Of a stretch of 64,000 nucleotides of DNA, positions 5,649-61,337 are shown one piece after another. Source of the stretch: Syntrophorhabdaceae bacterium (lineage in GTDB: Bacteria > Desulfobacterota > Syntrophorhabdia > Syntrophorhabdales > Syntrophorhabdaceae); NCBI GenBank assembly GCA_963666485.2, contig CAXXUO010000001.1:640001-704000 (forward strand), in the 5' to 3' direction. Positions within the stretch are counted from its first letter, which is position 1, and the number at the start of each line of letters is the position of its first letter. A model generated the notes under the pieces. The model had not been told where the DNA came from and made no database searches. It saw nothing but the letters and a program-made list of their open reading frames with translations. The translations under genes and the position numbers were made by a program.

Positions 5649-5769
5649 TGTAAAATTAACGCACGGACCTTTGGCCTCTTTCAAGAAAAATTCATCCGCC
5701 CGCCTGTTTTTTCACTTTTTCTGTTGTCAATTGCCGGGATGTATAATAGAATTAGCTCCTGTTATACGA

Positions 5770-6777
5770 ATGAAATCATTAATTAAAACAGCGTTTTTTC
5801 TTGTGTGCATCCTTATCGCTGCCCATGCCTCGGCGGACACGATCATTGGCGGCGACGTCACGCATACCGTGGGTAAGGGAGAAAACCTTTACCGGGTCGG
5901 CGCCAAGTATGGAGTGTACTGGAAAACCATTGCAAAAAACAACGGGCTCAACGAAAAGGACCCCCTCGTAGAAGGAACGGTCCTCAAGCTCAATACCCGC
6001 AGGATCGTGCCCCGTACCATGGATAACGGCATCATCGTGAACATCCCCGACCGGACCCTGTATTTCTTCCGGGACAAGCAATTGCTGGCCCTGCCCGTCG
6101 GCCTCGGCGCGATCTTCAAGAACGAGTACAGCGACTGGAAGACCCCGGAAGGCAAGTTCAAGATCGTGAGTAAACGGAAGGACCCCACGTGGTATGTCCC
6201 GGAGTCGATCCAGATAGAATACGCCTTGAAGGGAAAACCCGTCGAGGAATCCGTCCCGCCGGGACCGAAGAACCCGCTGGGTAAATATGCCATAAAAACA
6301 TCGCTTCCGGCTGTCCTTATCCATGAGACGATATGGCCGGGGAGCGTGTATCGCTACATGAGCCACGGGTGCATCCGGATGCTCCGCGAGCATATCGAGC
6401 AGTTGTTCCCTCTTGTCGAGGTCAACATGCCCGGGGAAATAATATATGAACCTGTCAAGGTCGCCCTGACCGAGGACGGCAGGACATTTGTCGAAATACG
6501 AACGGACATTTACAGAAAACATAAATCTCTGAAAACGTACACGGCAAAACTGATTGACGCAAAGGGCATGTCCGATAAGGTCGACTGGCAGAAGATCGAA
6601 AAGCTCATCAAGGAAGAGTCGGGTGTTGCCGAAGATGTCAGTCTCGGCAAACTGCAGAAGTCCTCCTCGTCATCATCGGGCAATTCGTCCGGCGGGACCG
6701 GCTTCACGGACCGCGTCGTCGATTATTTCAGGAGCAAATTCAAGAAGACCGACCAGGTAAGCACGCAAAAGTTTTAA
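5770..6777 (+). CDS. Exported LysM + L,D-transpeptidase (YkuD/ErfK-like)
   Basis: Signal peptide ending AHA-SA; LysM (HTVGKGENLYRVG...NNGL); GPKNPLG; catalytic HET...SHGCIRM. Confidence 0.9.
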   Translation: MKSLIKTAFFLVCILIAAHASADTIIGGDVTHTVGKGENLYRVGAKYGVYWKTIAKNNGLNEKDPLVEGTVLKLNTRRIVPRTMDNGIIVNIPDRTLYFFRDKQLLALPVGLGAIFKNEYSDWKTPEGKFKIVSKRKDPTWYVPESIQIEYALKGKPVEESVPPGPKNPLGKYAIKTSLPAVLIHETIWPGSVYRYMSHGCIRMLREHIEQLFPLVEVNMPGEIIYEPVKVALTEDGRTFVEIRTDIYRKHKSLKTYTAKLIDAKGMSDKVDWQKIEKLIKEESGVAEDVSLGKLQKSSSSSSGNSSGGTGFTDRVVDYFRSKFKKTDQVSTQKF

Positions 6778-6799: not shown

Positions 6800-7654
6800 T
6801 TACTTTCCCCTATTTTCCCAGAAGCTTTTATCCAGCCTTGCCGTAAATGTCTCGGGCTGCTTTCCCTCGTTGAATATCTGCGCGTACACTACGGGTGCCG
6901 ACCCGGGCTCCAATCGTATCACCCACGTCGCGAGGGTCCGGATGCTCGATCCTTTGCGGGGGTCCCTCATCACCGGGCCCGGGCCGCCCGAATTGCGGTC
7001 GCGGCTCATGGCAATATAATCATCGAGGGTGTGCTCCCGGTTGAGGGAGGCGATCAACTGGTTGATCCTCTTGAGGCGCAGCGTGCTTTCGCGGCTGATC
7101 TTTTCGTTGGCGCCGGCAAGGCTCTCGGATGTGTAATGATTCGTAAAGGCGACAGCCCCATTGTCCTTTACCGTGATCGCGACCTGGCCGCGCGGTGCCA
7201 CTTCGACGGACATGATCCGGGTAGAATCGGCTATTATATAAAGTGCCGGATGGGTCTTCCGGAAAATGTCCCTCTGCTTGTCCAGCGAATCCACGGAATC
7301 GAAGTTCTCGAGGATCCTTTGCGTGAAATCCTCGACTGCGACATGTCTCTTGCTGCGCTGGACGCTGTTCGCCGACGCATTGACGACGACAAGACCCTTT
7401 TCATTCACGGCCGCCACGACGTACCCGTCGGCCTCGATATCGAGGACGCCGAGGAAACGAAAGCCCTTGGCCGGGAAGACAAGACCCAGTCTCGTATGCA
7501 GCGGCGATGAATTGTCCCGGTTCTTTCCGACGATCACCCCTTTGCCCGCGACGATATCGCCGGCTGAGGCCCAGATGGTGCAAGTTTCTCCATACCCTGC
7601 AAATAAAAAACAAAGTATTGTGCAACAGACGAAACCCGTGATGATGCGTGGCAT
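6800..7654 (-). CDS. Exported Ntn-hydrolase (peptidase C45 / acyltransferase family)
   Basis: Signal peptide followed by the nucleophile motif CTIW; GKNRD, VNEKGL, TNHY. Confidence 0.7.
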   Translation of the reverse strand: MPRIITGFVCCTILCFLFAGYGETCTIWASAGDIVAGKGVIVGKNRDNSSPLHTRLGLVFPAKGFRFLGVLDIEADGYVVAAVNEKGLVVVNASANSVQRSKRHVAVEDFTQRILENFDSVDSLDKQRDIFRKTHPALYIIADSTRIMSVEVAPRGQVAITVKDNGAVAFTNHYTSESLAGANEKISRESTLRLKRINQLIASLNREHTLDDYIAMSRDRNSGGPGPVMRDPRKGSSIRTLATWVIRLEPGSAPVVYAQIFNEGKQPETFTARLDKSFWENRGK

Positions 7655-7834: not shown

Positions 7835-9562
7835 ATGACGAAAACGACAAACGATTCACCGGATGGCAGGCTGGCCGCTTTTCTTCTCGACCAGAGGCTG
7901 ATCGCGCAGGAACAACTCGACAAGGCACTCGAGATCCAGGCGGTAAGCGGCGGGTACCTGAGCGAGATCCTCGTGAACAAGGGGCTGATCGCGGAAGATG
8001 ATGTGGCGTTCTCCCTGTCCGAGGAGTTCGGCATTCCGCTTCTGTCTTCACAGAACGGTGCCCTGCAGCCCGCCGCCGAAGACCAGGAACTCAAAAGGCT
8101 TATACCGAAACAGTTCGCCCTGAGGAATTTTATCTTTCCGGTCTCCCGGAAGGACAACATCTTCACCTGCATAATGTTCAATCCCCTGGATGTTATGCTG
8201 ATCGATGAGCTCAAGAAGATAACCGGGTGCCAGGTGAAGCCTGTCGTCGCTACCCGGTCCGACATCCTACGGGCGATAGAGGGCTTCTATGATGCGGGCG
8301 CCGTATCCCGGAAATACCACCGCGACAATCACGCGATAAACAGCATCGAATTGCAGTCCCCGTCGATCGTCGACGAGACGGCGGGCGTTGAAGGCATGAT
8401 GGCGCGGGCGAAGGCTGCACCGGTCATCAAGCTTGTGGATCTCATGCTCTGGCAGGCGATCGATAAACGCGCATCGGACATCCACCTGGAGCCTTTCGAA
8501 AACCATATTTCGCTCAGGTACCGGATCGACGGGAAGCTCTATGAAATGTCGGCACCGCCGAAACACATGCACCTGCCCATCGTCTCGAGGATCAAGATAT
8601 TGTCCCGCCTCGATATTTCCGAGAAACGCCTTCCCCAGGACGGTACGTTCATGGTGAAGATCCATGACCGGACGATCGACCTCAGGATATCGGTCATTCC
8701 CACCATATACGGGGAAAAAGTGGTCATGCGCATCCTCGACCGGACAGGGGTTGTCTTCGACCTCGCACAGATGGGCTTCGAGGAGGACGATCTCGAGAAA
8801 CTGAAGAAAGCGATCTTCAGCCCGTATGGCCTTGTATTTCTTACGGGGCCGACAGGCAGCGGAAAATCAACGACACTGTATGCGATCCTGCAGGAGATCA
8901 AATCGACCGAGAAGAACATCGTGACGGTCGAAGACCCGGTCGAATACAGGCTTGAGGGGATCAACCAGGTGCAGGTGAAACCCGAGATCGGCCTGACGTT
9001 CGCCTCGTCGCTGCGGGCATTCCTCCGGCAGGACCCCGACATCATGCTTGTCGGCGAGGTGCGGGACCTCGAAACGGCCGAGATATGCGTGCGGTCAGCC
9101 CTTACCGGCCACCTTGTCCTCTCGACGCTCCACACGAATGACGCCCCGTCCGCTGTGACCCGGCTCATCGATATCGGCGTCGAGCCCTACCTTCTCGCGC
9201 CGACGCTCCTTGCCGTCGTCGGCCAAAGACTCGTGCGGAAGCTCTGTCCCGAGTGCAAGGAAGCCTACACCCCCGAAAAGAAAGAACTCGGCATGGCGAA
9301 ACTGAACACCGATGTCATCTATCGCCCGAAAGGATGTCCCGCCTGCAACAACACGGGATACCGCGGCAGGACCCTCGTCGCCGAGGTGATGTCCACATCC
9401 GAAGAGCTGAAAACGTTCATCACCCATAACGTCTCCTACCGTGACATGCACAAGCGTGCCCGCGAGCTGGGGATGAAGACGCTTTTTGAATCAGGATTAC
9501 GAAAAGTCGAAAAAGGGATTACGAGTTTGGATGAAGTTATGCATGTCGCTTTTGGCATATAA
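7835..9562 (+). CDS. GspE/PilB-family secretion or pilus assembly ATPase
   Basis: N-terminal MshEN-like segment (RLAAFLL...LSEILV); ASDIHLEP; Walker A GPTGSGKS; LRQDPDIMLVGE; STLHTN; tetracysteine motif. Confidence 0.92.
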   Translation: MTKTTNDSPDGRLAAFLLDQRLIAQEQLDKALEIQAVSGGYLSEILVNKGLIAEDDVAFSLSEEFGIPLLSSQNGALQPAAEDQELKRLIPKQFALRNFIFPVSRKDNIFTCIMFNPLDVMLIDELKKITGCQVKPVVATRSDILRAIEGFYDAGAVSRKYHRDNHAINSIELQSPSIVDETAGVEGMMARAKAAPVIKLVDLMLWQAIDKRASDIHLEPFENHISLRYRIDGKLYEMSAPPKHMHLPIVSRIKILSRLDISEKRLPQDGTFMVKIHDRTIDLRISVIPTIYGEKVVMRILDRTGVVFDLAQMGFEEDDLEKLKKAIFSPYGLVFLTGPTGSGKSTTLYAILQEIKSTEKNIVTVEDPVEYRLEGINQVQVKPEIGLTFASSLRAFLRQDPDIMLVGEVRDLETAEICVRSALTGHLVLSTLHTNDAPSAVTRLIDIGVEPYLLAPTLLAVVGQRLVRKLCPECKEAYTPEKKELGMAKLNTDVIYRPKGCPACNNTGYRGRTLVAEVMSTSEELKTFITHNVSYRDMHKRARELGMKTLFESGLRKVEKGITSLDEVMHVAFGI

Positions 9563-10828: not shown

Positions 10829-11712
10829 GTGACGCCGGACATATCCCGGTTCTTTTCCAGGAAGTACTTGAAAACCTGATCAGCAACACAAGCGGCACAT
10901 TCGTCGACGCAACTCTCGGGGGTGCGGGACACGCCCTCGGATTGCTGAGCAGGAACAGTAAATTACACCTAATAGGTATTGATAGAGATCAGGAAGCCTT
11001 AGAGCGGGCGCGGGACGTACTCAGAGCATATAGCGACCGGGTAACTTTACTGAGAGGCAACTTCGGGGACATGAAGGGTTTGCTCCACAGTGCAGGGGTG
11101 AAATCTATTGACGGTGCCCTCTTTGATCTTGGTATTTCCAGCTATCAATTGGAAAGCGGCAGGGGATTCAGCTTTAACGACGACGAGGAACTCGATATGA
11201 GGATGGACCGGGGACAGGACCTCACTGCATATCACATCGTTAATTCATATCGCCAGGAAGAGATCGCCCGGATCCTCTACGAATACGGGGAAGAGTGGCA
11301 ATCGCGCAAAATAGCGAAGGCCATCTTCGATGCCCGGAAAAAAGACCGTATACGGACAGGCAGGCAGCTCGCCGGGATCATCGCATCGGTAAAGAAACGG
11401 ACCGGGAAGACCCATCCTGCCACGAAATCTTTCCAGGCTTTAAGGATAGCCGTCAACGACGAACTGAAAAGCGTGGTGAACGGGCTCGATGCGGCCCTCG
11501 AGCTTCTGTCGCCCGGGTCCAGAATAGGCGTCATAACGTTTCATTCCCTTGAAGACCGGATCGTCAAGGAGCGTTTTCGCAACGATGACGCCCTGGCAGT
11601 CGTGACCCGCAAGCCCTTGAGGCCGGGCCGCGACGAGGTCCGTTCCAACCCGCGGTCGCGCAGCGCCAAACTGCGCATCGCAGAGAAAAAATCAGTGGGG
11701 GGTGCATCATGA
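10825..11712 (+). CDS. rsmH: 16S rRNA m4C1402 methyltransferase
   Basis: HIPVL, DATLGGAGH, RGFSF, LDMRM, FQALRIAVN, FHSLEDR, NPRSRSAKLR. Confidence 0.95.
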   Translation: MSDAGHIPVLFQEVLENLISNTSGTFVDATLGGAGHALGLLSRNSKLHLIGIDRDQEALERARDVLRAYSDRVTLLRGNFGDMKGLLHSAGVKSIDGALFDLGISSYQLESGRGFSFNDDEELDMRMDRGQDLTAYHIVNSYRQEEIARILYEYGEEWQSRKIAKAIFDARKKDRIRTGRQLAGIIASVKKRTGKTHPATKSFQALRIAVNDELKSVVNGLDAALELLSPGSRIGVITFHSLEDRIVKERFRNDDALAVVTRKPLRPGRDEVRSNPRSRSAKLRIAEKKSVGGAS

Positions 11713-12023
11713 TGTACAGATCGAGAAAGATATATATAGACACATCGGGCGACAAGCTGTTCGACGGCGTCCGGCCCATTCTCTTTCTGGGAGTCATGAT
11801 AGCTTTTGTCATCATTGTAAGCTGCCTGCTCGTCAATGCCCACAGCCGGGCACGGCAGGACCTTATCGAGACGCTGACGCTCGAGCGCCAGATGAGGGAG
11901 ACGCACCAGAAACTGGCCTCCGACATGGCAGGCGTTACGCAGTCGCGGCTCCTCGCCCTGAAGGCGAAAGAAAGGCTGGGTTTGACAAAACCAAAGGATG
12001 AAGAGGTTCTCGTCTTGAAATGA
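11709..12023 (+). CDS. ftsL: Cell division protein FtsL-like
   Basis: 104 aa; one TM helix followed by a coiled coil ending AKERLGL..P; sits in the ftsL slot. Confidence 0.7.
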   Translation: MMYRSRKIYIDTSGDKLFDGVRPILFLGVMIAFVIIVSCLLVNAHSRARQDLIETLTLERQMRETHQKLASDMAGVTQSRLLALKAKERLGLTKPKDEEVLVLK

Positions 12024-12871
12024 ACAAACAGGCGATCAGGAAAGCCTTCATTGTATGCACACTCATAGGGCTCATGTATGCAGGGATTGCGTTCAATGTT
12101 CAGGACCGGTTCTCCATGAAGAGGACGTCGGGGAAGCTCGCCGCAAAGGCACCCCGGAGCTTGAGCGTCGCCGCGCCGCAGCCGAAACCGGACCCGGTCC
12201 CCCAGAAAAAGGCCCTGGTCGCAGATAGCAGCACCGGTTTAGAGCCCGCATTCCTCATCGCCGTCCCCATCATCGCTTTTGCCATACGCGAAAATCTCCT
12301 CGAAAAAGACGGCATGGTCGTCGTTCAGAAGAATGACGAGGATTCGTCTTCGGTCTACCTGAAGAAACCCATGGACATATTGAAAGACAGGGACAAGGAA
12401 GGCCTCAAGGCCTTATCGCGCATCATCGGCAAAAAGAATATCGAGGTCTTTCTCACAAAACAGGGTGTGAAGGTCCCCGATAAATCCCTGTCTGTTGATA
12501 CTATCACCGGAATCGGTTACAGTATTGACCGGAAATTGCTTGTTAGTATGTACGATCAGTATGTCGGTGAAGGCTTCGCTTCCCTCATGCCTTATGCCTC
12601 TGGCGGTTTTGAAGTCTCAAGAAAAAATAACGGGTACCAGATCAATGCGGTCCGGAATGAAAAAACACCGGAGAACGCGGGGGCAAGTTCCGCCTTTTCC
12701 ATGCCGGACCTCACGGGATTGTCCATGAAAGCGGCCCTCGACAGGATATCGCCGAAGGCCGAGGTCAAGATCCACGGTTCGGGCATCGTTGTCGACCAGT
12801 TCCCCAAACCAAAGGAAAGAGTTGAAAAAGAGACCCGGTGCGTTCTGTATGGGAGGTCATACCAAAAGTGA
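12020..12871 (+). CDS. Degenerate FtsI-like protein (TM + transpeptidase-fold remnant without SxxK/SxN/KTG + PASTA)
   Basis: 283 aa in the ftsI slot, overlapping both neighbours. PASTA domain MPDLTGLSMKAAL...GSGIVVDQFPKP. Similarity to PBP3 judged by eye only. Confidence 0.7.
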   Translation: MNKQAIRKAFIVCTLIGLMYAGIAFNVQDRFSMKRTSGKLAAKAPRSLSVAAPQPKPDPVPQKKALVADSSTGLEPAFLIAVPIIAFAIRENLLEKDGMVVVQKNDEDSSSVYLKKPMDILKDRDKEGLKALSRIIGKKNIEVFLTKQGVKVPDKSLSVDTITGIGYSIDRKLLVSMYDQYVGEGFASLMPYASGGFEVSRKNNGYQINAVRNEKTPENAGASSAFSMPDLTGLSMKAALDRISPKAEVKIHGSGIVVDQFPKPKERVEKETRCVLYGRSYQK

Positions 12872-16744: not shown

Positions 16745-18070
16745 ATGGACATACCTGATCGCATACTTATCGTCGGACTTGGCACATCGGGAATAGCCGT
16801 TGCCAGGTTCCTTTCCCGGCTCGGGAAGACGATCGGTATCGCCGACGAAAAGAGTGAAAATGAGCTCGGCAACGCCCTTTCGGCGCTTGAAGGGATCGCA
16901 TATACCGGCCATTTCGGCCCGCACCGGCAAGCCGATTTCACCTCCTATCCACTCATTGTCCTGAGCCCCGGCGTCGATACGGAGCTGCCCGTCATCCGGG
17001 AGGCCAAAAAGGCCGGCGTCAGGGTCATCGGCGAGATGGAACTTGCCTCATCCTTTGTGAAAGACCCGATAATAGCGATCACGGGAACAAATGGAAAGAC
17101 AACGACGACAACCCTCATCGGTGAGATATTTTCGAAGGGGCTCGGGCCCTGCTTCGTCGGGGGGAACATCGGCAACCCTCTCATCAACTACGTGGCGGAC
17201 GGCACACGTTGCCCGGCCGTTATCGTGGAGGTGAGCAGCTTTCAGCTCGAAACGATCGAGGGCTTCAGGCCGTCAACCGCCCTGCTCCTCAACATCACCG
17301 AAGACCACCTCGACCGCTACCGTAGCTACGAGGAATACAAAGCCGCGAAATACCGCATCTTCGATAACCAGGCAAGTACGGACAATGCCATCGTACGGTC
17401 CGGGCTCGATGTCCCGATGAAAGGCACGCCGCGCGCGTTCACGTTCTCTGCGACAGATGAGGTCCGCGAGGGGGCATTCGCGAAGGACGGCAGGCTCTAT
17501 GTGAGGTTCGACGGCAAGGAATCGTCCTTCCGGCGGGACATCTCGCCTCTCGTCGGCGTCCATAACACGGAGAACATCCTCGCCGCCATTCTTACGGCCC
17601 GCATTCACGGAATAGACGATGCGGTCATTGAAAGTTGTTTGCGGAGATTCCGCGGGCTCCCCCACCGGGTCGAATTCGTGCGCACCGTACGGGATGTTGC
17701 CTTTTACAATGATTCGAAGGCCACGAACGTCGATGCCACAAAGAGGGCCCTCGAAGGCTTCGACAGGAACGTCATCCTGATCGCCGGCGGCAAGGACAAG
17801 GGCGGAAGCTACAAAGCGATACGCGATATGAGTGCGCGCATAAAGGCCATTATTCTTATCGGCGAGGCAAAGGACCGGATCGCCGCGGAGCTTTTCGATA
17901 TCGCCCCGACGTACGGGGAAAGCGATATGACGTCCGCCGTGTATGCAGCCTTTTCGCAGGCATCGGCAGGGGACACCGTCCTCCTGTCGCCGATGTGCAG
18001 CAGCTTCGACATGTTCACGAGCTACAAGGAGCGGGGAAATACATTCAGGAGAATAGTGGAGTCGCTGTGA
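16745..18070 (+). CDS. murD: UDP-MurNAc-L-Ala:D-Glu ligase
   Basis: GTNGKTT, EVSSFQL, DHLDRY, NDSKATN, SP.CSSFD. Confidence 0.96.
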   Translation: MDIPDRILIVGLGTSGIAVARFLSRLGKTIGIADEKSENELGNALSALEGIAYTGHFGPHRQADFTSYPLIVLSPGVDTELPVIREAKKAGVRVIGEMELASSFVKDPIIAITGTNGKTTTTTLIGEIFSKGLGPCFVGGNIGNPLINYVADGTRCPAVIVEVSSFQLETIEGFRPSTALLLNITEDHLDRYRSYEEYKAAKYRIFDNQASTDNAIVRSGLDVPMKGTPRAFTFSATDEVREGAFAKDGRLYVRFDGKESSFRRDISPLVGVHNTENILAAILTARIHGIDDAVIESCLRRFRGLPHRVEFVRTVRDVAFYNDSKATNVDATKRALEGFDRNVILIAGGKDKGGSYKAIRDMSARIKAIILIGEAKDRIAAELFDIAPTYGESDMTSAVYAAFSQASAGDTVLLSPMCSSFDMFTSYKERGNTFRRIVESL

Positions 18071-18858
18071 AAAAGATAGGAATAGCCATAGTGTCCCTTA
18101 TCCTCGTATACAGCTTTTTCCGCGAATTCTCGCTCATGCGCGTCGCCATCATACTTGCGGGCGCCGCGGCGGGCTTCGGCATCTCGCTGATCCCCCGGCG
18201 CGGGATCGAGGCGATGAAGTACCCTCTCATTATCATCTCTTTCGCCATAACCGTCCTCCTGTTCTTCTACCCGAAGGTCACGATACCGGATGCCGCAAAA
18301 ATGGCGATCGTCTTTGTTTCCTTCTACGGCTTCGCCTTCTACCTCATAGGCATAGAGAACAAGGACCAGGACTTTTTCAAGGAAGTGACCGCGCTGTCCA
18401 TCCTTTTCTTCTCGTCCGGCTTCAATCTCTATATCACGGGGAACCTCGTATACCTGATCTCGTTCGCGCTCGCCCTCATGCTGTTCCTCTTCATCCTGGG
18501 AAGGTACCGCGTCATTGCCTTTATCGCCGCGTATACCCTCGTGGCATGCTTCATGATCTACCGTCAGAAGACGGGAATCCTGGGAAGCGGCCTCACGGGC
18601 CTTTCGGAGATCAACAAGTACATGCTCCTCGGGACGTCCTTCGCGCTTCTCGCTATCAGTTTTGCGACGATCATGAAGAAAGGCAGCTTCACGAATATGC
18701 TGCCTTTCTTCGGTTTCCTCTATGTGGCAGTGGATATCCTGCTCGTCGTCGGAATGAAGCTGCAGGCAGGGCTCCTCTATCAGCCGGTCCTTTTCCTTGC
18801 CATCGTCGTCCCGCTCGCGGGAACGATGATGATGAAGACGGAAGGAGGGCGGGCATGA
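18067..18858 (+). CDS. Degenerate FtsW-like polytopic membrane protein (SEDS motifs absent)
   Basis: 263 aa from GTG, in the ftsW slot, overlapping the murD stop and murG start. Mostly TM helices. N-terminal pattern LILVYS...IP.R....YPL resembles FtsW; QPSE, QPD, TDF and SYGGS are missing. Confidence 0.65.
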   Translation: MKKIGIAIVSLILVYSFFREFSLMRVAIILAGAAAGFGISLIPRRGIEAMKYPLIIISFAITVLLFFYPKVTIPDAAKMAIVFVSFYGFAFYLIGIENKDQDFFKEVTALSILFFSSGFNLYITGNLVYLISFALALMLFLFILGRYRVIAFIAAYTLVACFMIYRQKTGILGSGLTGLSEINKYMLLGTSFALLAISFATIMKKGSFTNMLPFFGFLYVAVDILLVVGMKLQAGLLYQPVLFLAIVVPLAGTMMMKTEGGRA

Positions 18859-22163: not shown

Positions 22164-23064
22164 GGAAACTTTGAAAACGATAAAGATAGGGGTCCTCTTC
22201 GGCGGCAGGTCATCGGAAAGGGAGATATCGCTGAGAAGCGGAAAGGCCGTTTTCGATGCCCTTATCCGGCTCGGATACAACGCGGTCGCGATCGACGCCG
22301 AGAAAAAACTTATCGATAAGCTAAAAAAACAGAAGATCGAGGCGGCTTTTATCGTGCTCCATGGAAGATGGGGCGAGGACGGTACGGTACAGGGACTCCT
22401 CGAGCTCATGGGAATACCGTACACCGGCCCCGGCGTGATGGGTTCGTCCGCGGCAATGGACAAGGCGATCATGAAATTCATCCTTGAGGCATCGCACATC
22501 CCCACCCCGAAATATGCCGTCGCGGGTGCGGGTGATCGTATCACCTTCAAACCGCCCTTCGTCGTGAAACCCGCAAACGAAGGATCGACGATAGGGATAT
22601 CGCTCGTCCAGAAAAGAAAGGATATACCGGCAGCCATGGAACTCGCGCTCAGGTACGACAGGAAAGTAGTTGTCGAAGAATTTATAGCCGGCCAGGAGAT
22701 CACGGTTGCCGTCATCAACGGAAGGGCCCTGCCCGTCATCGAGGTGCGGCCGCTGTCCGGTTTCTATGATTTCGAGGCAAAGTACACAAAAGGGATGACG
22801 GAATACATCGTCCCCGCCCGGATATCCCGGACGATCGCCAGAAAGGCGCAGGCCATCGCGCTCGATGTGAGCCGCCGGTTCGACCTTACCGGGTGCGTAC
22901 GGATCGATATGCTTATCAAGGAAGAGGTCCCCTACGTGATCGATATCAACACCTCCCCCGGCATGACGGAGACATCGCTCGTCCCCAAGGCATGGGCATA
23001 CGAAGGAAAGACATTTGACGAGCTTATCGACGAGATACTTTCAGGAGCTTCGCTGAAGATATGA
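22156..23064 (+). CDS. ddl: D-alanine-D-alanine ligase
   Basis: GGRSSEREIS, HGRWGEDG, YDFEAKY, NTSPGMT. Confidence 0.95.
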   Translation: MDKETLKTIKIGVLFGGRSSEREISLRSGKAVFDALIRLGYNAVAIDAEKKLIDKLKKQKIEAAFIVLHGRWGEDGTVQGLLELMGIPYTGPGVMGSSAAMDKAIMKFILEASHIPTPKYAVAGAGDRITFKPPFVVKPANEGSTIGISLVQKRKDIPAAMELALRYDRKVVVEEFIAGQEITVAVINGRALPVIEVRPLSGFYDFEAKYTKGMTEYIVPARISRTIARKAQAIALDVSRRFDLTGCVRIDMLIKEEVPYVIDINTSPGMTETSLVPKAWAYEGKTFDELIDEILSGASLKI

Positions 23065-23762
23065 AGAAGTTTCTCTACTTTCTGTTCATCGGGCCGGTCT
23101 GCATACTCTCCATGCTGTCGATCGCCTATTTGTTCTCCCGGGAGGAGCCGCTCTTTTTCCTGCAGAACATAAAGGTGAACGGCTTGAGCCAGCTCGGTGA
23201 CAAGGAAACGGTCGCGAAGATCCAGCCGTACGTCACGCAGAACATCTTCAAGGTGGACCTCGAGAAGATGCAGGAAACCCTTACCGCGCACCCCTTCGTC
23301 AAAGAGGTCAGCGTAAAGCGGGTCTACCCGTTCTCGCTCGTCATCGACGTGAAGGAGAAGAAGCCGTCCGCCCTCTGGGTCGCAAACGACGGCGCGGTCC
23401 TCGTCCTCGACGAGGCAGGCGAAGCGTACCGCTCACTGGGAAAGGACGACGTCAGGGGGCTCTACATTATCAATACCCGCGAAAAGTCTGATGCCAAGAG
23501 CGTCTTTCACGAGACAAACAGTTTTATCGCGGACGGGATAATCAAGAAAGGTCAGCTTTCGGAAGTATCTTACGTCAACGGGAATCTTATAATGTTCGGC
23601 TTCAATGACGGCGTCGAGATCATACTCGGCAAGGAAGACCACAAGACCCGGCTTAAACGGGCCATGACTGTCCTTAAGGACGCGAGCAAACGCGGCCTTC
23701 TCATAAAATGCATCGACGCGCGCTTTGAAAAAGGCGCCATAATCCAGGAAAAGAAGGGGTGA
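23061..23762 (+). CDS. ftsQ: Cell division protein FtsQ/DivIB
   Basis: TM helix + POTRA (HPFVKEVSVKRVYP...VKEK); C-terminal IDARF; dcw position. Confidence 0.85.
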   Translation: MKKFLYFLFIGPVCILSMLSIAYLFSREEPLFFLQNIKVNGLSQLGDKETVAKIQPYVTQNIFKVDLEKMQETLTAHPFVKEVSVKRVYPFSLVIDVKEKKPSALWVANDGAVLVLDEAGEAYRSLGKDDVRGLYIINTREKSDAKSVFHETNSFIADGIIKKGQLSEVSYVNGNLIMFGFNDGVEIILGKEDHKTRLKRAMTVLKDASKRGLLIKCIDARFEKGAIIQEKKG

Positions 23763-25012
23763 GGCGGGTGAAGGAAGAGGAACAGCTGCTTGTAGGTCTC
23801 GATATCGGAACAACGAAGATCTGCGTTGTCGTCGGAAAGGCGGCGGAAGACAAGGTCAACATCATCGGCATAGGATCGCATCCTTCCACCGGCCTGCGCA
23901 AAGGCGTCGTCGTCAACATGGACAGCACCGTCAACTCGATCAAGAAGGCCGTCGAAGAAGCGGAGCTCATGGCCGGCATCAAGATCGATTCATGCCTTGC
24001 CGGCATCGGCGGGGCCCACATCAAGAGCTTCAACAGCAATGGCGTTGTGGCGGTCAAGGACCGCGAGGTCCGTCCCGATGACATCGATCGTGCGATCGAC
24101 GCCGCAAAGGCGGTCGCCATACCCGCCGACCGGGAACTGATCCATGTCATCCCGCAGGAATTTATCGTCGATGACCAGGACGGGATACGCGACCCCGTGG
24201 GCATAACAGGGGTCAGACTCGAAGTGAAGGTACACATCGTGACCGGGAGCATCTCGTCAGCCCAGAACATCATCAAATGCTGCAAACTTGCCGGGCTCAA
24301 TGTCGACGACGTGATACTCTGCCAGCTCGCGTCGGCGGAAGCCGTCCTGACACCGGAGGAAAAGGAGATAGGCGTGGCCGTCGTCGACATAGGGGGCGGA
24401 ACGAGCGACATCGCCGTCTATGCGAACGGGGCAATAAAGCACACATCCGTCCTGCCGTTCGGCGGCAACAATATCACGAACGACATAGCGATCGGCCTGA
24501 GGACGCCGATCGACGACGCCGAGAAGATCAAGAAAAAATACGGCTGCGCTATGGCGAGCCTCGTCGGCCAGAATGAGACGATAGAGGTTCCGAGCGTCGG
24601 CGGCAGGAAACCCAGGACCCTCCAGAGAAAGACCCTGGCGGACATCATAGAGCCCCGGGTCGAAGAGGTGTCCTCACTTATTTACGATGAGATCAAGAAG
24701 TCGGGCCTCGAGAAGCTGCTTGCATCAGGCGTTGTCCTGACGGGCGGATGCTCGAACCTCGACGGGCTGCCGGAAATGGCGGAGAACATATTCAACCTGC
24801 CGGCCCGAAAAGGCGACCCGATCGGGGTCGGCGGGCTTATCGACGTCGTCAACAACCCGGCATATGCAACGGCTGTCGGGCTCTTGCTGTTCGGTTTCAA
24901 GGAAGGACGAGGGAAAAAACGCGGGTTTGACGCTGCGCGCTCGATGAGGAAGTTGTTCAGCAACCAGCGGCTGCTCACGAAGATGAAAGACTGGTTTAAA
25001 GAAATATTCTAG
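23759..25012 (+). CDS. ftsA: Cell division protein FtsA
   Basis: LDIGTTK, DIGGGTSD, VLTGG; C-terminal amphipathic helix MKDWFKEIF. Confidence 0.96.
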   Translation: MRRVKEEEQLLVGLDIGTTKICVVVGKAAEDKVNIIGIGSHPSTGLRKGVVVNMDSTVNSIKKAVEEAELMAGIKIDSCLAGIGGAHIKSFNSNGVVAVKDREVRPDDIDRAIDAAKAVAIPADRELIHVIPQEFIVDDQDGIRDPVGITGVRLEVKVHIVTGSISSAQNIIKCCKLAGLNVDDVILCQLASAEAVLTPEEKEIGVAVVDIGGGTSDIAVYANGAIKHTSVLPFGGNNITNDIAIGLRTPIDDAEKIKKKYGCAMASLVGQNETIEVPSVGGRKPRTLQRKTLADIIEPRVEEVSSLIYDEIKKSGLEKLLASGVVLTGGCSNLDGLPEMAENIFNLPARKGDPIGVGGLIDVVNNPAYATAVGLLLFGFKEGRGKKRGFDAARSMRKLFSNQRLLTKMKDWFKEIF

Positions 25013-25022
25013 GAGGTGCGAG

Positions 25023-26189
25023 GTGAGTGGAATGTTCTACATGGACGAGAGCAACGGTTTTTCAGCAAAATTGATTGTCGTGGGGGTAGGTGGAGGGGGC
25101 TGCAATGCACTCAACAACATGGTCGAAGCGGGGATCCAGGGTGTTGAGTTCATCGCGGTTAACACGGATATCAAGTCGCTCAGCACATGCAAGGCACCGG
25201 TCAAGATACAGATCGGGACGAAGCTGACCGAGGGGCTCGGTGCCGGTGCGAATCCCGAGGTAGGCAAAAAGGCCGCGCTCGAGGATGTCGACAAGATAAA
25301 GGACCACCTCAAGGGCGCGCACATGGTCTTCATCACCTGCGGGCTTGGCGGGGGAACGGGGACAGGGGCGTCACCGGTCATAGCGGAGATAGCGCGCGAG
25401 GTCGGGGCGCTCACGGTCGCGATCACGACGAAGCCTTTCGCCTTCGAGGGGAAGGACAGGATGACCCAGTCGGAAAACGGCGTCACCCAGCTCAAGTCAC
25501 GGGTTGACTCGCTCATTACGATCCCCAACCAGAGACTGCTCTCGGTCGGTGGAAAACACATGACGATCATGGAGGCATTTCTCAAAGCCGACGAGGTCCT
25601 CCTCAACGCGGTGCGTTCCATTTCCGACCTCATCATCGGGTCCGGCCATGTCGTCGTGGATTTCGCCGATGTCAAGACGATCATGAGCGAGCGGGGAATG
25701 GCCATCATGGGCATTGGCGAGGCACAGGGAGAGTCGAGGGCGCGCGACGCGGCACAGAAAGCGATCTCGAGCCCGCTTCTCGAAGATATCTCCATCCATG
25801 GCGCCCGCGGCGTTCTCATCAACGTCACCGGCAACACCGACATGACACTGATGGAGGTCAGCGAAGCATCGACGCTTATCCAGGAACAGGCCCACGAAGA
25901 CGCGAAGATCATCTGGGGCCTTGTCTACGACCCGTCCATGCAGGATATGATCAGGATCACCGTCATCGCGACCGGTTTCGAGGAACGGGCCGCCATAGAC
26001 GACGACACGACCGAGCTTTTCCTGAAGGACAGGCTCTTCGATGATGGCAGTATGCCGTCTTTTATGAAGAAGAAGGTCGCCATCGATTACAAGGTCGACT
26101 ACAAGGAAATCAGGCAGAAGAGCGATACGATCGATATCGACGACGATCGCTATGATATACCGACATTCCTCAGAAAACAGGCAGATTAA
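25023..26189 (+). CDS. ftsZ: Cell division protein FtsZ
   Basis: GVGGGGCN, GGGTGTG, DFADV; C-terminal DIPTFLRKQAD. Confidence 0.98.
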   Translation: MSGMFYMDESNGFSAKLIVVGVGGGGCNALNNMVEAGIQGVEFIAVNTDIKSLSTCKAPVKIQIGTKLTEGLGAGANPEVGKKAALEDVDKIKDHLKGAHMVFITCGLGGGTGTGASPVIAEIAREVGALTVAITTKPFAFEGKDRMTQSENGVTQLKSRVDSLITIPNQRLLSVGGKHMTIMEAFLKADEVLLNAVRSISDLIIGSGHVVVDFADVKTIMSERGMAIMGIGEAQGESRARDAAQKAISSPLLEDISIHGARGVLINVTGNTDMTLMEVSEASTLIQEQAHEDAKIIWGLVYDPSMQDMIRITVIATGFEERAAIDDDTTELFLKDRLFDDGSMPSFMKKKVAIDYKVDYKEIRQKSDTIDIDDDRYDIPTFLRKQAD

Positions 26190-59426: not shown

Positions 59427-61337
59427 ATGGAAAGCATACTGCTCAACCGGATATACGGGAAAATAAGGCCGCACCTCGCCGGTCCCGATGATCCATACCT
59501 CGTGGCATCTATCGGGGAACAAAAACTGTACGTGTGTGCCGGGAAGACGGTGACCGGGGTCTACGCGGCGTCAACGTCGCGACTCGGGGTGGGCATCAGG
59601 GAAGATTCACTGAAGACGCCGCCGGGAGTCCACCGGGTATGCGAGAAGATAGGCGCCGATGCGCCCGAGGGCCGTATTTTCAGGGACCGCGAGGACACCG
59701 GGGTAGACTGGGACCACACGTCGGACGAAGAGAACATCATACTGACCCGCATCCTTCGTCTTGAAGGGCTTGAACCGGGCATAAACCGCGGACCTGGTGT
59801 CGATACGTACGAGCGGTATGTCTACATACACGGAACGAACCGGGAGAACGATGTCGGCACGCCGTTTTCCAACGGATGCATATGCCTTCGCAACGCGGAC
59901 ATTGTCTCGTTGTTCGATCTCGTCCCGGAGGGCACGGTCCTTTACATAGACCCTCCGCCCCTCGTGATCAACGGATATCCCCTGAAGAACGTCCATTTTA
60001 CCGGCATCTTCGGGACCGGGATGAGCGCGCTTGCCCAGTACTTGAGGTTCTGCGGGATAGAGGTTTCCGGGTCCGACCGTCTTCTCGCGAGCCCCGATAC
60101 ACAGGAAATGATGGAAAGCCTGAAGCTCCTCGGCTGCGTGATCGCTCACCAGGACGGGTCCGGGGTGACGGAGGGCACGGATGCCCTGTGCATATCGACG
60201 GCGATCGAGGAAACAAACCCCGACATCGCCGCCGCACGCAGCCGCGGTATCCCGATAATTCACCGCTCGGACCTTCTCGCGGGCATAATAGCATCGAAGA
60301 GGACCGTTGCCGTCGCGGGAACGAGCGGGAAATCGACGGTCACCGCCATGATATTCGAATGCCTCGATGCCTGCGGCATGTCCCCGTCGCTCATCAGCGG
60401 GGCGCCCCTCATCAGGCTCGAGGCGGGAGGCCTTATCGGGAACGCCTATTCGGGAGGGTCTGACCTGCTTGTTGTCGAGGCCGATGAAAGCGACGGGACC
60501 CTTGCGAAATACTCGCCGGACATATCGGTGATACTCAACGTCTCGAAGGACCACAAGACGATAGAGGAGATCACCTCCCTTTTCGCCGGCCTTATCGAAC
60601 GGTCGTCGTGGACAGCAACGAACAATGACGACCCGATACTCGCGAACCTTCCGGCAACTGTCCGTTTCGGCAGGAACAGGGCCGCGGCATGGCACCCCGA
60701 CCGGGAAGACCTCCATCCTTTATCGGTGAGCCTCACGCGCTGCGGCATCGAATACCGCCTGCCCGTTCCCGGGGAACATAGCCTCGAGAACCTCAAGGCG
60801 GCCCTGTGCGTGTGCGAGCACCTCGGGTGCGGCGGCGACGCCCTTGCGCGCGCTGTCGGGAATTTCGCCGGGGTCGCGCGCAGGTTCACGATAGTTCACA
60901 CGAAAAGCGGCGTAACAGTTATCGACGACTTCGCCCACAACCCGGCCAAGATCGCGGCCGCCATTACCGCGGCGCACGGCACAGCAGACCGGCTCATCGC
61001 CGCCTATCAGCCCCACGGTTTCGGTCCGACACGGTTTCTCAAGGACGAATACATCGCGTCGTTTCAGAAAATATTCCGCCCCGGCGATGAACTCTACCTT
61101 CTGCCCATTTACTACGCTGGCGGCACCGCGCAAAAAGACATATCCTCTCAGGACATCATCGATGGACTCGGAAAAGTCCCATTCCACGCCGAAGCCGTCA
61201 AAGACCGGGATGAGCTCGTTGAAAAAATAAGTTCGAGCGCCCGGCCCGGCGACTGCGTCATCGTCATGGGCGCCCGCGATCCGTCACTACCGGCCCTCGT
61301 CAGGAAAATAGTTGATATTTTCGGTGGGGAAGAATAG
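59427..61337 (+). CDS. L,D-transpeptidase (YkuD) domain fused to a MurC/Mpl-like ligase
   Basis: N-terminal KTPPG...YIHGT...SNGCICL; C-terminal GIFGTGMSALA, GTSGKST, EADESDG, DDFAHNP; no signal peptide. Confidence 0.85.
   Translation: MESILLNRIYGKIRPHLAGPDDPYLVASIGEQKLYVCAGKTVTGVYAASTSRLGVGIREDSLKTPPGVHRVCEKIGADAPEGRIFRDREDTGVDWDHTSDEENIILTRILRLEGLEPGINRGPGVDTYERYVYIHGTNRENDVGTPFSNGCICLRNADIVSLFDLVPEGTVLYIDPPPLVINGYPLKNVHFTGIFGTGMSALAQYLRFCGIEVSGSDRLLASPDTQEMMESLKLLGCVIAHQDGSGVTEGTDALCISTAIEETNPDIAAARSRGIPIIHRSDLLAGIIASKRTVAVAGTSGKSTVTAMIFECLDACGMSPSLISGAPLIRLEAGGLIGNAYSGGSDLLVVEADESDGTLAKYSPDISVILNVSKDHKTIEEITSLFAGLIERSSWTATNNDDPILANLPATVRFGRNRAAAWHPDREDLHPLSVSLTRCGIEYRLPVPGEHSLENLKAALCVCEHLGCGGDALARAVGNFAGVARRFTIVHTKSGVTVIDDFAHNPAKIAAAITAAHGTADRLIAAYQPHGFGPTRFLKDEYIASFQKIFRPGDELYLLPIYYAGGTAQKDISSQDIIDGLGKVPFHAEAVKDRDELVEKISSSARPGDCVIVMGARDPSLPALVRKIVDIFGGEE

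Follow-up and report, generated by a model that had tools for sequence, protein, structure and literature searches.

Septum synthesis is described as depending almost universally on FtsW-FtsI (FtsWI), an essential synthase; the exception that has been tested is C. difficile (PMC10693644, PMC12871735). In the dcw cluster of a Syntrophorhabdaceae bacterium, the positions of both genes are occupied by short open reading frames, here named X (ftsI slot) and Y (ftsW slot). This raises the question of what the two genes encode and which enzymes could build the septum in this organism.

Gene content and order of the dcw cluster

The window, i.e., the whole stretch of 64,000 nucleotides that was analyzed, harbors a complete dcw cluster in the order mraZ, rsmH, ftsL-slot gene, X, murE, murF, mraY, murD, Y, murG, murC, murB, ddl, ftsQ, ftsA, and ftsZ. 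The following features are central to this study.

11712..12023, + strand: ftsL-slot gene, 103 aa, with weak FtsL matches under the cut-off
12020..12871, + strand: X, mini pseudo-FtsI in the ftsI slot, 283 aa, with a TM anchor, a flexible linker, a predicted partial transpeptidase domain, and PASTA
18067..18858, + strand: Y, mini pseudo-FtsW in the ftsW slot, 263 aa, with a predicted 10-TM SEDS fold without large periplasmic loops
23061..26189, + strand: ftsQ, ftsA, and ftsZ, core divisome genes that close the cluster and are intact

X overlaps both of its neighbors, the ftsL-slot gene and murE, by 4 nt (ATGA and GTGA), and Y starts with a GTG that overlaps the stop codon of murD. Synteny analysis of 19 clusters of the same order, inferred to be Syntrophorhabdales, revealed X (248 to 367 aa) and Y (260 to 286 aa) in the ftsI and ftsW slots in every case. 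As in the window, Y lies between murD and murG and ftsA is intact in all 19, and the ftsL-slot gene is also kept in all of them. In contrast, 20 of 20 outgroup clusters, which were picked for having a scored ftsW, carry a full FtsI (580 to 738 aa) and FtsW in the same slots.

Upstream of the cluster, the window encodes a LysM-YkuD L,D-transpeptidase (5671-6777, +; 3.6 kb upstream of mraZ), an AAT-family (acyl-CoA:6-aminopenicillanic acid acyltransferase-like) protein (6800-7654, -), and a GspE/PilB-type ATPase (7835-9562, +). A second YkuD match is located at about 59493-59948 (+).

The protein in the ftsI slot

Searches of Pfam and NCBIfam with X returned PASTA alone, and sequence and profile searches of the PDB gave no significant match. 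A homolog search yielded 60 proteins about as long as X. Few of these were named, mostly as Syntrophorhabdaceae or Syntrophorhabdus, and 52 of the 60 were aligned with X (alignment A1). When 1.84 billion proteins were searched with X, full-length matches ended sharply, and the remaining rows listed were fragments or matched mainly via PASTA.

Profile-profile comparison using HHalign linked X to a profile of 20 canonical FtsI proteins of the same phylum (97.6%, E 2.8e-12). Since control profiles scored far worse (PBP2, E 0.17; MurE, E 0.073; MurD, E 0.77), this match is not due to chance. The transpeptidase part alone scored more weakly (E 0.0018 versus FtsI and 0.17 versus PBP2), and PASTA is shared by 17 of these 20 canonical FtsI, so that much of the score of whole X comes from PASTA. 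The same count indicates that PASTA of X is ancestral, and its new acquisition by X was ruled out on this basis. The N terminus of X showed a weak profile match to that of FtsI (E 0.005). Judged by gene position and profile, X is an FtsI ortholog.

The AlphaFold2 model of X (pLDDT 74.9, pTM 0.49) comprises a helix (residues 3 to 28), a disordered stretch (28 to 71), a domain at about residues 72 to 212, and then PASTA. Together with conservation among the homologs, it divides X into the following parts.

12020..12127, + strand: X aa 1-36, conserved membrane end with the N-terminal tail and the TM helix (modeled at 3-28); mean conservation 0.65
12128..12235, + strand: X aa 37-72, variable Pro/Lys/Ala-rich linker replacing the pedestal and the first transpeptidase strands; pLDDT <50, conservation 0.30
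12236..12655, + strand: X aa 73-212, predicted transpeptidase-fold remnant, from structure search, HHalign, ESM features, and conservation
12692..12862, + strand: X aa 225-281, PASTA, with a Pfam match over the cut-off at 227-272

Foldseek ranked PBP2x first (E 5.7e-5), and VIA-align placed class B PBPs first (Z 11.5 to 10.3, residues 69 to 219), with an rmsd of 3.7 and 148 aligned residues for the top row. Furthermore, 26 of 30 matches obtained with ESM features were to PF00905. A penicillin-binding transpeptidase fold is thus predicted by modeling to be present in X as a partial domain at residues 69 to 219. With about 140 aa, compared to about 250 aa in canonical proteins, this domain is shortened as well as mutated. 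The original prediction, made by eye from the sequence, had described X as a transpeptidase-like scaffold without pedestal but with PASTA kept, and had named an unrelated fold of the middle domain as the result that would speak against it. Profile-profile and structure comparisons returned class B PBPs instead, and PASTA scored over the Pfam cut-off. The pedestal (PBP_dimer) domain also has no Pfam match in X, where a variable linker modeled with a pLDDT below 50 (residues 28 to 71) takes its place. The spacing from R35 to E75 is 28 to 136 aa in X homologs, and the EPGS motif of canonical FtsI starts at residue 278 to 350. Conservation is highest in the membrane end (0.65) and PASTA (0.64), followed by the transpeptidase remnant (0.56) and the two linkers (0.30 and 0.27).

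Loss of the catalytic motifs in X

We then inspected the active-site motifs in 85 distinct X homologs (alignment A1, 19 locus ORFs, and 19 representatives of the large protein search, with duplicates removed). SxxK and SxN were found in none of them and a KTG-type K[TS]G in five; all three motifs are present in 20 of 20 canonical FtsI. In X itself, the SxxK site (aa 78-81) reads FLIA, the SxN site (aa 124-126) reads RDK, and the KTG strand (aa 196-204) is without motif. The position of the catalytic Ser is occupied by L, F, or Y in 74 of the 85 homologs. Ser77 was considered as a shifted nucleophile and ruled out, as it occurs in only 51 of 85 homologs and has no downstream Lys. Near-invariant residues of the remnant are E75, P76, P83, K115, K116, P117, D125, G164, G166, and Y167.

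The segments of X quoted in the original prediction are present at about the positions given there, and HHalign reproduced their by-eye alignment (EPAFLIA with EPGSTFK, DILKDRDKEG with DIIKFSSNIG, and TITGIGYSI with TVSFGQGVSV). Its statement that there is no KTG holds for the motif in X and needs refinement for the structure around it: the KTG-bearing strand survives (GFEVSRK aligned with GYEVAGK in HHalign), and the K[TS]G of the five homologs falls in the hairpin aligned to this strand. The view of X as a noncatalytic FtsI descendant is borne out by the missing SxxK and SxN and by the FtsI profile match. Acylation of X by beta-lactams is predicted to be unlikely because SxxK is missing throughout and the Ser site is mostly L, F, or Y. 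The original prediction also saw X as a peptidoglycan-binding adaptor, which is a hypothesis, PASTA being inherited.

The protein in the ftsW slot

Y had no match in Pfam or NCBIfam, both searched with a 279-aa reading of the same frame, or in sequence and profile searches of the PDB, and the ESM Atlas returned unnamed low-score clusters alone, at 0.82. A homolog search found 139 proteins, of which 120 were listed and 103 aligned. The structure model is of modest quality (pLDDT 62.5, pTM 0.61) and contains ten long helices. Its best match among 48,161 chains was FtsW of P. aeruginosa (8bh1_A; Z 19.7, rmsd 3.4, 256 of 263 residues aligned), followed by two RodA (Z 16.5 and 16.2) and WaaL (12.1), with unrelated rows at 11.1 or below. 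In Foldseek, the top five rows were all SEDS proteins, at E values of only 0.018 to 0.09. Based on the model, Y is predicted to have a ten-TM SEDS fold like FtsW.

In HHalign, the Y profile matched FtsW in the N-terminal half only (6.4%, E 0.006; RodA, E 0.13; MraY, E 0.62), and the C-terminal half gave no match to FtsW (E 0.3 to 0.5). A search of 289 genomes outside the order with the Y profile returned a sole match, which lies inside a canonical ftsW (G090, E 8e-6). Sequence support for Y being FtsW is therefore weak but specific.

Motifs of FtsW were counted in 20 FtsW proteins and in 121 distinct sequences of Y, after removal of P0133, a row that looks frameshifted. RW was found in 20/20 FtsW versus 2/121 Y, QPSE in 17/20 versus 0/121, PE.HTD in 17/20 versus 0/121, and SYGG in 20/20 versus 0/121. 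Of these, RW and QPSE belong to ECL2, PE.HTD with the catalytic Asp belongs to ECL4, and SYGG belongs to ECL5. Two sites of Y were examined closely.

18565..18606, + strand: Y aa 167-180, loop between predicted TM7 and TM8; 14 aa versus the roughly 70-aa ECL4 that bears the catalytic Asp of FtsW
18733..18735, + strand: Y Asp223, located within predicted TM9 and kept as Asp by 120 of 121 homologs

ECL4 was assigned in Y by helix counting and motif spacing, and also by hydropathy. At the position matching Asp223, in a register set by motif spacing, FtsW mostly has Asn. Y also harbors a conserved acidic residue at position 20 and a highly conserved G-x5-G-L-L-Y-Q-P loop.

As described in the FtsW study PMC8765783, the putative catalytic D297 and dominant-negative (inactivating) mutations of FtsW map to these loops, ECL4 is the contact for the FtsI pedestal, and inactive FtsW mutants still localize and recruit FtsI. 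The membrane contacts given in PMC7614612 are those of FtsI-TM on FtsW TM8/TM9 and of FtsL on FtsW TM1 and EC1. Compared to these contacts, X and Y have lost the catalytic and activation layer of FtsWI and mainly retain its membrane assembly layer. The original prediction had treated X as a lone protein. Its reading as a dead FtsI stands, but the ftsW-slot gene has eroded in parallel, and no canonical FtsW is found in the genome or the order.

Distribution and selection across the order

Of 96 genomes examined from the order, 95 encode X and 94 encode Y. One genome (G024) is without X, Y, and murG, and its cluster is probably unassembled; the other Y-negative genome is 66% complete. FtsW scored over the cut-off in 0 of 96 genomes of the order versus 80 of 96 genomes outside it. 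This cut-off (TIGR02614) is strict and was passed in 3 of 10 control genomes, so that the claim of a missing FtsW depends on the single-copy SEDS count and on the context of mrdA. A SEDS gene was found in all 96 genomes of the order, with a single match in 83 (54 of 61 with the Pfam model). A second SEDS match occurred in G275, G267, G268, G045, and G053, where it did not reach the FtsW cut-off. In 7 of 7 genomes of the order, one pedestal domain was found, whereas 174 of 194 other genomes have at least two.

Among 15 genomes of the same genus, median dN/dS was 0.18 for X (44 of 105 pairs usable) and 0.15 for Y (81 of 105 pairs usable), compared to 0.05 to 0.16 for eight other genes of the cluster. 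X is thus the most relaxed and also the fastest-evolving of the ten cluster genes tested (61% median identity). In some assemblies, a few matches are split, apparently by frameshifts or at contig ends. A decaying pseudogene or an assembly artifact was ruled out based on the low dN/dS and on the X frame, which is uninterrupted in almost all of the 95 genomes. By these substitution rates, X and Y are under purifying selection, and both are conserved order-wide.

Remaining genes for cell wall synthesis

The genome (99.1% complete, 10 contigs) contains one SEDS gene (rodA) and one pedestal-bearing PBP (PBP2). Its rodA and mrdA are located after mreBCD in an ordinary operon, score over the cut-off as typical RodA and MrdA, and represent the only intact SEDS-bPBP pair, with full motifs. 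A relocated canonical ftsI or ftsW was ruled out by this inventory and by the missing FtsW matches in the order. Two MurJ-family genes are present; Y as a needed flippase was ruled out because of MurJ. FtsZ, FtsA, FtsQ, FtsB, and the Mur pathway are also encoded.

Other transpeptidase matches were two PBP1A-family proteins and PBP1C, all class A PBPs with intact motifs, and a class D beta-lactamase-like protein. The gene for the latter (L002:1474-2382, -; G000:C9) encodes SxxK and KTG and scores 247.6 versus an NCBIfam cut-off of 250. In addition, there are four YkuD genes. The genome's only SPOR match is a 950-aa TPR protein beside motAB (L072:5460-8312, +; G000:C3), and no FtsN was evident.

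A PBP1A-family gene scored over the cut-off in 58 of 58 genomes of the order. The compact class A PBP of this genome (G000:C2:254393-256345) had a full-length match (E below 1e-99) in 17 of 17 FtsW-less genomes versus 47 of 84 others, where the 17 represent about four lineages and the protein is common anyway. Several FtsW-less genomes have no other transglycosylase match. The neighborhoods of two class A PBP genes in this genome contained no known division genes.

Some genomes of the order carry further genes of this kind. L048, L049, L050, and L053 (G273, G272, G263, and G030) harbor an extra operon outside the dcw cluster with a 458- to 470-aa SEDS protein and a class B PBP that has intact SxxK and KTG and 27 to 32% identity to the PBP2 of the genome studied here. 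L051 and L052 (G055 and G060) encode a second PBP2-like protein (60 to 62% identity to the same PBP2), with no SEDS gene in the stretch.

Other lineages of the phylum without FtsW

Outside the order, 12 genomes have a single or split SEDS gene under the FtsW cut-off. We inspected nine clusters (L088 to L096; G087, G154, G114, G085, G124, G144, G071, G111, and G182), which represent eight of these genomes and G182. In all nine, murD adjoins murG, and the ftsI-slot gene (324 to 656 aa) is without all three motifs in 8 of 8 clusters showing the slot. FtsI of these lineages mostly keeps the pedestal, and there is a single SEDS gene. In family f29, the ftsI-slot remnant (324 to 333 aa) keeps pedestal-like sequence without PASTA and is thus trimmed in the opposite way to X. 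L089, L093, and L094 contain an apparent fusion of murE and murF (ORFs of 978 to 1048 aa). A mirror case was seen in G062, G103, and G137 (family f6), where the only SEDS protein passes the FtsW cut-off and the pedestal is matched once; RodA-PBP2 was apparently not found, and G062 showed no transglycosylase match at E 1e-20.

In trees of five dcw proteins, the order forms one clade, and four changes of the FtsWI state are needed. A single origin of FtsWI erosion, i.e., one clade, was not rejected in the AU test (p 0.204; 35 rows, with 13 rows of the order left out). Two trees disagree on the sister of the order.

Proposed function of X and Y in division

Taken together, X and Y are very probably dead orthologs of FtsI and FtsW. 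They resemble the FtsWI(QLB) core of P. aeruginosa and E. coli, as depicted in 8bh1, 8p1u, and PMC7614612, in their dcw slots, in the combination of a predicted 10-TM SEDS protein with a single-TM partner of PBP fold, and in the presence of FtsQ, FtsB, an ftsL-slot gene, FtsA, and FtsZ. Unlike FtsI of these species, X is without pedestal, SxxK, SxN, and KTG, and its transpeptidase domain is trimmed; unlike their FtsW, Y is without the ECL2, ECL4, and ECL5 motifs, including the loop of the catalytic Asp.

We consider it somewhat better than an even chance that X and Y form a nonenzymatic scaffold of the divisome and that the septal wall is polymerized and cross-linked by a class A PBP. X and Y would pair in the membrane via the membrane helix of X and TM8/TM9 of Y, and FtsL would dock on TM1 of Y. 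Both putative contacts are proposed because the membrane parts are kept and the FtsI pedestal and FtsW ECL4, which contact each other outside the membrane in activation, have both been deleted. The tethered transpeptidase remnant and PASTA may extend to the wall or to a partner enzyme, which they would help to position. The working septal synthase would be the compact class A PBP, perhaps together with L,D-transpeptidases. It is favored because of the precedent in C. difficile (PMC10693644), with which its distribution in FtsW-less genomes agrees as a lead only. Some findings count against this model. A pure scaffold leaves the near-invariant Asp223 and the acidic residue at position 20 unexplained, and one of the two FtsL-FtsI contacts that are known is gone along with the pedestal. 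A SEDS scaffold is not generally needed, as ftsW has been deleted altogether in further lineages of this phylum. The modest quality of the Y model, the weak profile match of Y to FtsW, and the fast evolution of X also weigh against the model.

Alternatively, X and Y could be the same dead scaffold, with RodA-PBP2 being recruited to midcell and making the septum as well, so that one pair does both jobs. The completeness of this pair in the genome and the SEDS gene in all genomes of the order fit this idea, cross-pairing of SEDS proteins and bPBPs is discussed in PMC12516126, and the part of PMC10693644 on C. difficile leaves a contribution of PBP2 open. However, rodA and mrdA remain in the mreBCD operon and score as typical RodA and MrdA, and the sole experimentally resolved FtsWI loss uses a class A PBP; we regard this alternative as possible but unlikely. 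Still less probable, in our view, is a repurposed pair, in which Y still handles a lipid-linked substrate in an altered way (by binding or handing over lipid II or the carrier of lipid II, or by residual transfer with Asp223) and X presents the substrate or nascent wall. Such a pair would fit with the conservation of Asp223 and the G-x5-G-L-L-Y-Q-P loop, with K115-K116-P117 and D125 being near-invariant around the former cleft of X, and with purifying selection similar to that on MurE and MurF, but every known active-site loop is missing in Y, Asp223 lies inside predicted TM9 and outside a periplasmic loop, and with two MurJ-family genes no flippase is missing.

It is also conceivable that X and Y are no functional division pair at all, being relics retained for operon coupling, having an unrelated membrane role, or, in the case of Y, being an unrelated membrane protein in place of ftsW. 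The overlaps of both genes with their neighbors would suit relics, and an unrelated Y would agree with the empty Pfam, NCBIfam, and PDB sequence searches and the unnamed ESM Atlas clusters. We consider this highly improbable given dN/dS values of 0.15 to 0.18, near-invariant columns across four families, a full-length SEDS fold match well over background, exact conservation of the slots, and the match of the Y profile inside a real ftsW.

Comparison with known exceptions and significance

The scaffold with septum synthesis by a class A PBP has a counterpart in C. difficile, which, as reported in PMC10693644, divides by the class A PBP1; its dcw pair is an active sporulation synthase, FtsQLB is dispensable, and FtsA is absent. 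Like C. difficile, the organism studied here has no canonical FtsW-FtsI for vegetative division, with RodA-PBP2 and class A PBPs remaining. Unlike in C. difficile, the pair is dead yet conserved, FtsA, FtsQ, and FtsB are kept, and the septal role of the class A PBP is putative. Within the same phylum, absence of ftsW from four Desulfobulbaceae genomes was reported in work including cable bacteria, where FtsI activity was assumed (PMC7873302). An FtsI without catalytic motifs next to a single SEDS gene, as seen in L088 to L096, is the feature shared with these bacteria. In the ftsW-less clusters, however, ftsW is deleted and the pedestal mostly kept, whereas the order studied here has retained ftsW as a mini-protein and lost the pedestal. 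Engineered dead bPBPs of B. subtilis and C. difficile are described as still being needed structurally, with another PBP cross-linking (PMC12516126). These proteins carry point mutations introduced in the laboratory, and their SEDS partner is active, whereas both partners are naturally eroded here, order-wide.

A literature search, mostly without subscription papers, gave no paper on the division genes of the order or on a naturally dead SEDS-bPBP pair among the matches listed. The main text of the global survey PMC12516126 contains no Syntrophorhabdus or Desulfo- taxa, and its Tables S3 to S9 could list FtsI or FtsW absence for the genus. A retained pseudo-FtsW beside a dead FtsI appears to be new. 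Whether a whole order has a divisome with FtsW-FtsI as a pure pseudoenzyme scaffold, comprising the first naturally dead SEDS protein kept in a dcw cluster and representing one of several FtsWI erosions in the phylum that leave the building of the septum to a compact class A PBP, we judge to be about evenly balanced. In this broader reading, the erosions would comprise a dead full-length FtsI with ftsW deleted, pedestal-only remnants, and the double miniature of X and Y.

Such a divisome would be a different kind of exception, outside the Firmicutes, with genes stripped to their membrane and binding parts and two interacting activation modules lost together. Scaffolding and catalysis by FtsWI would be uncoupled in it, a separation that is difficult to achieve in model organisms, and the retained parts would, if this is true, map the noncatalytic core of FtsWI. 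Domain-based surveys miss such genes, as Y has no Pfam or NCBIfam match and X only PASTA. The divisome of these bacteria is predicted to be insensitive to FtsI-specific beta-lactams, and the question of how FtsZ, FtsA, and FtsQLB could drive a class A PBP becomes testable.
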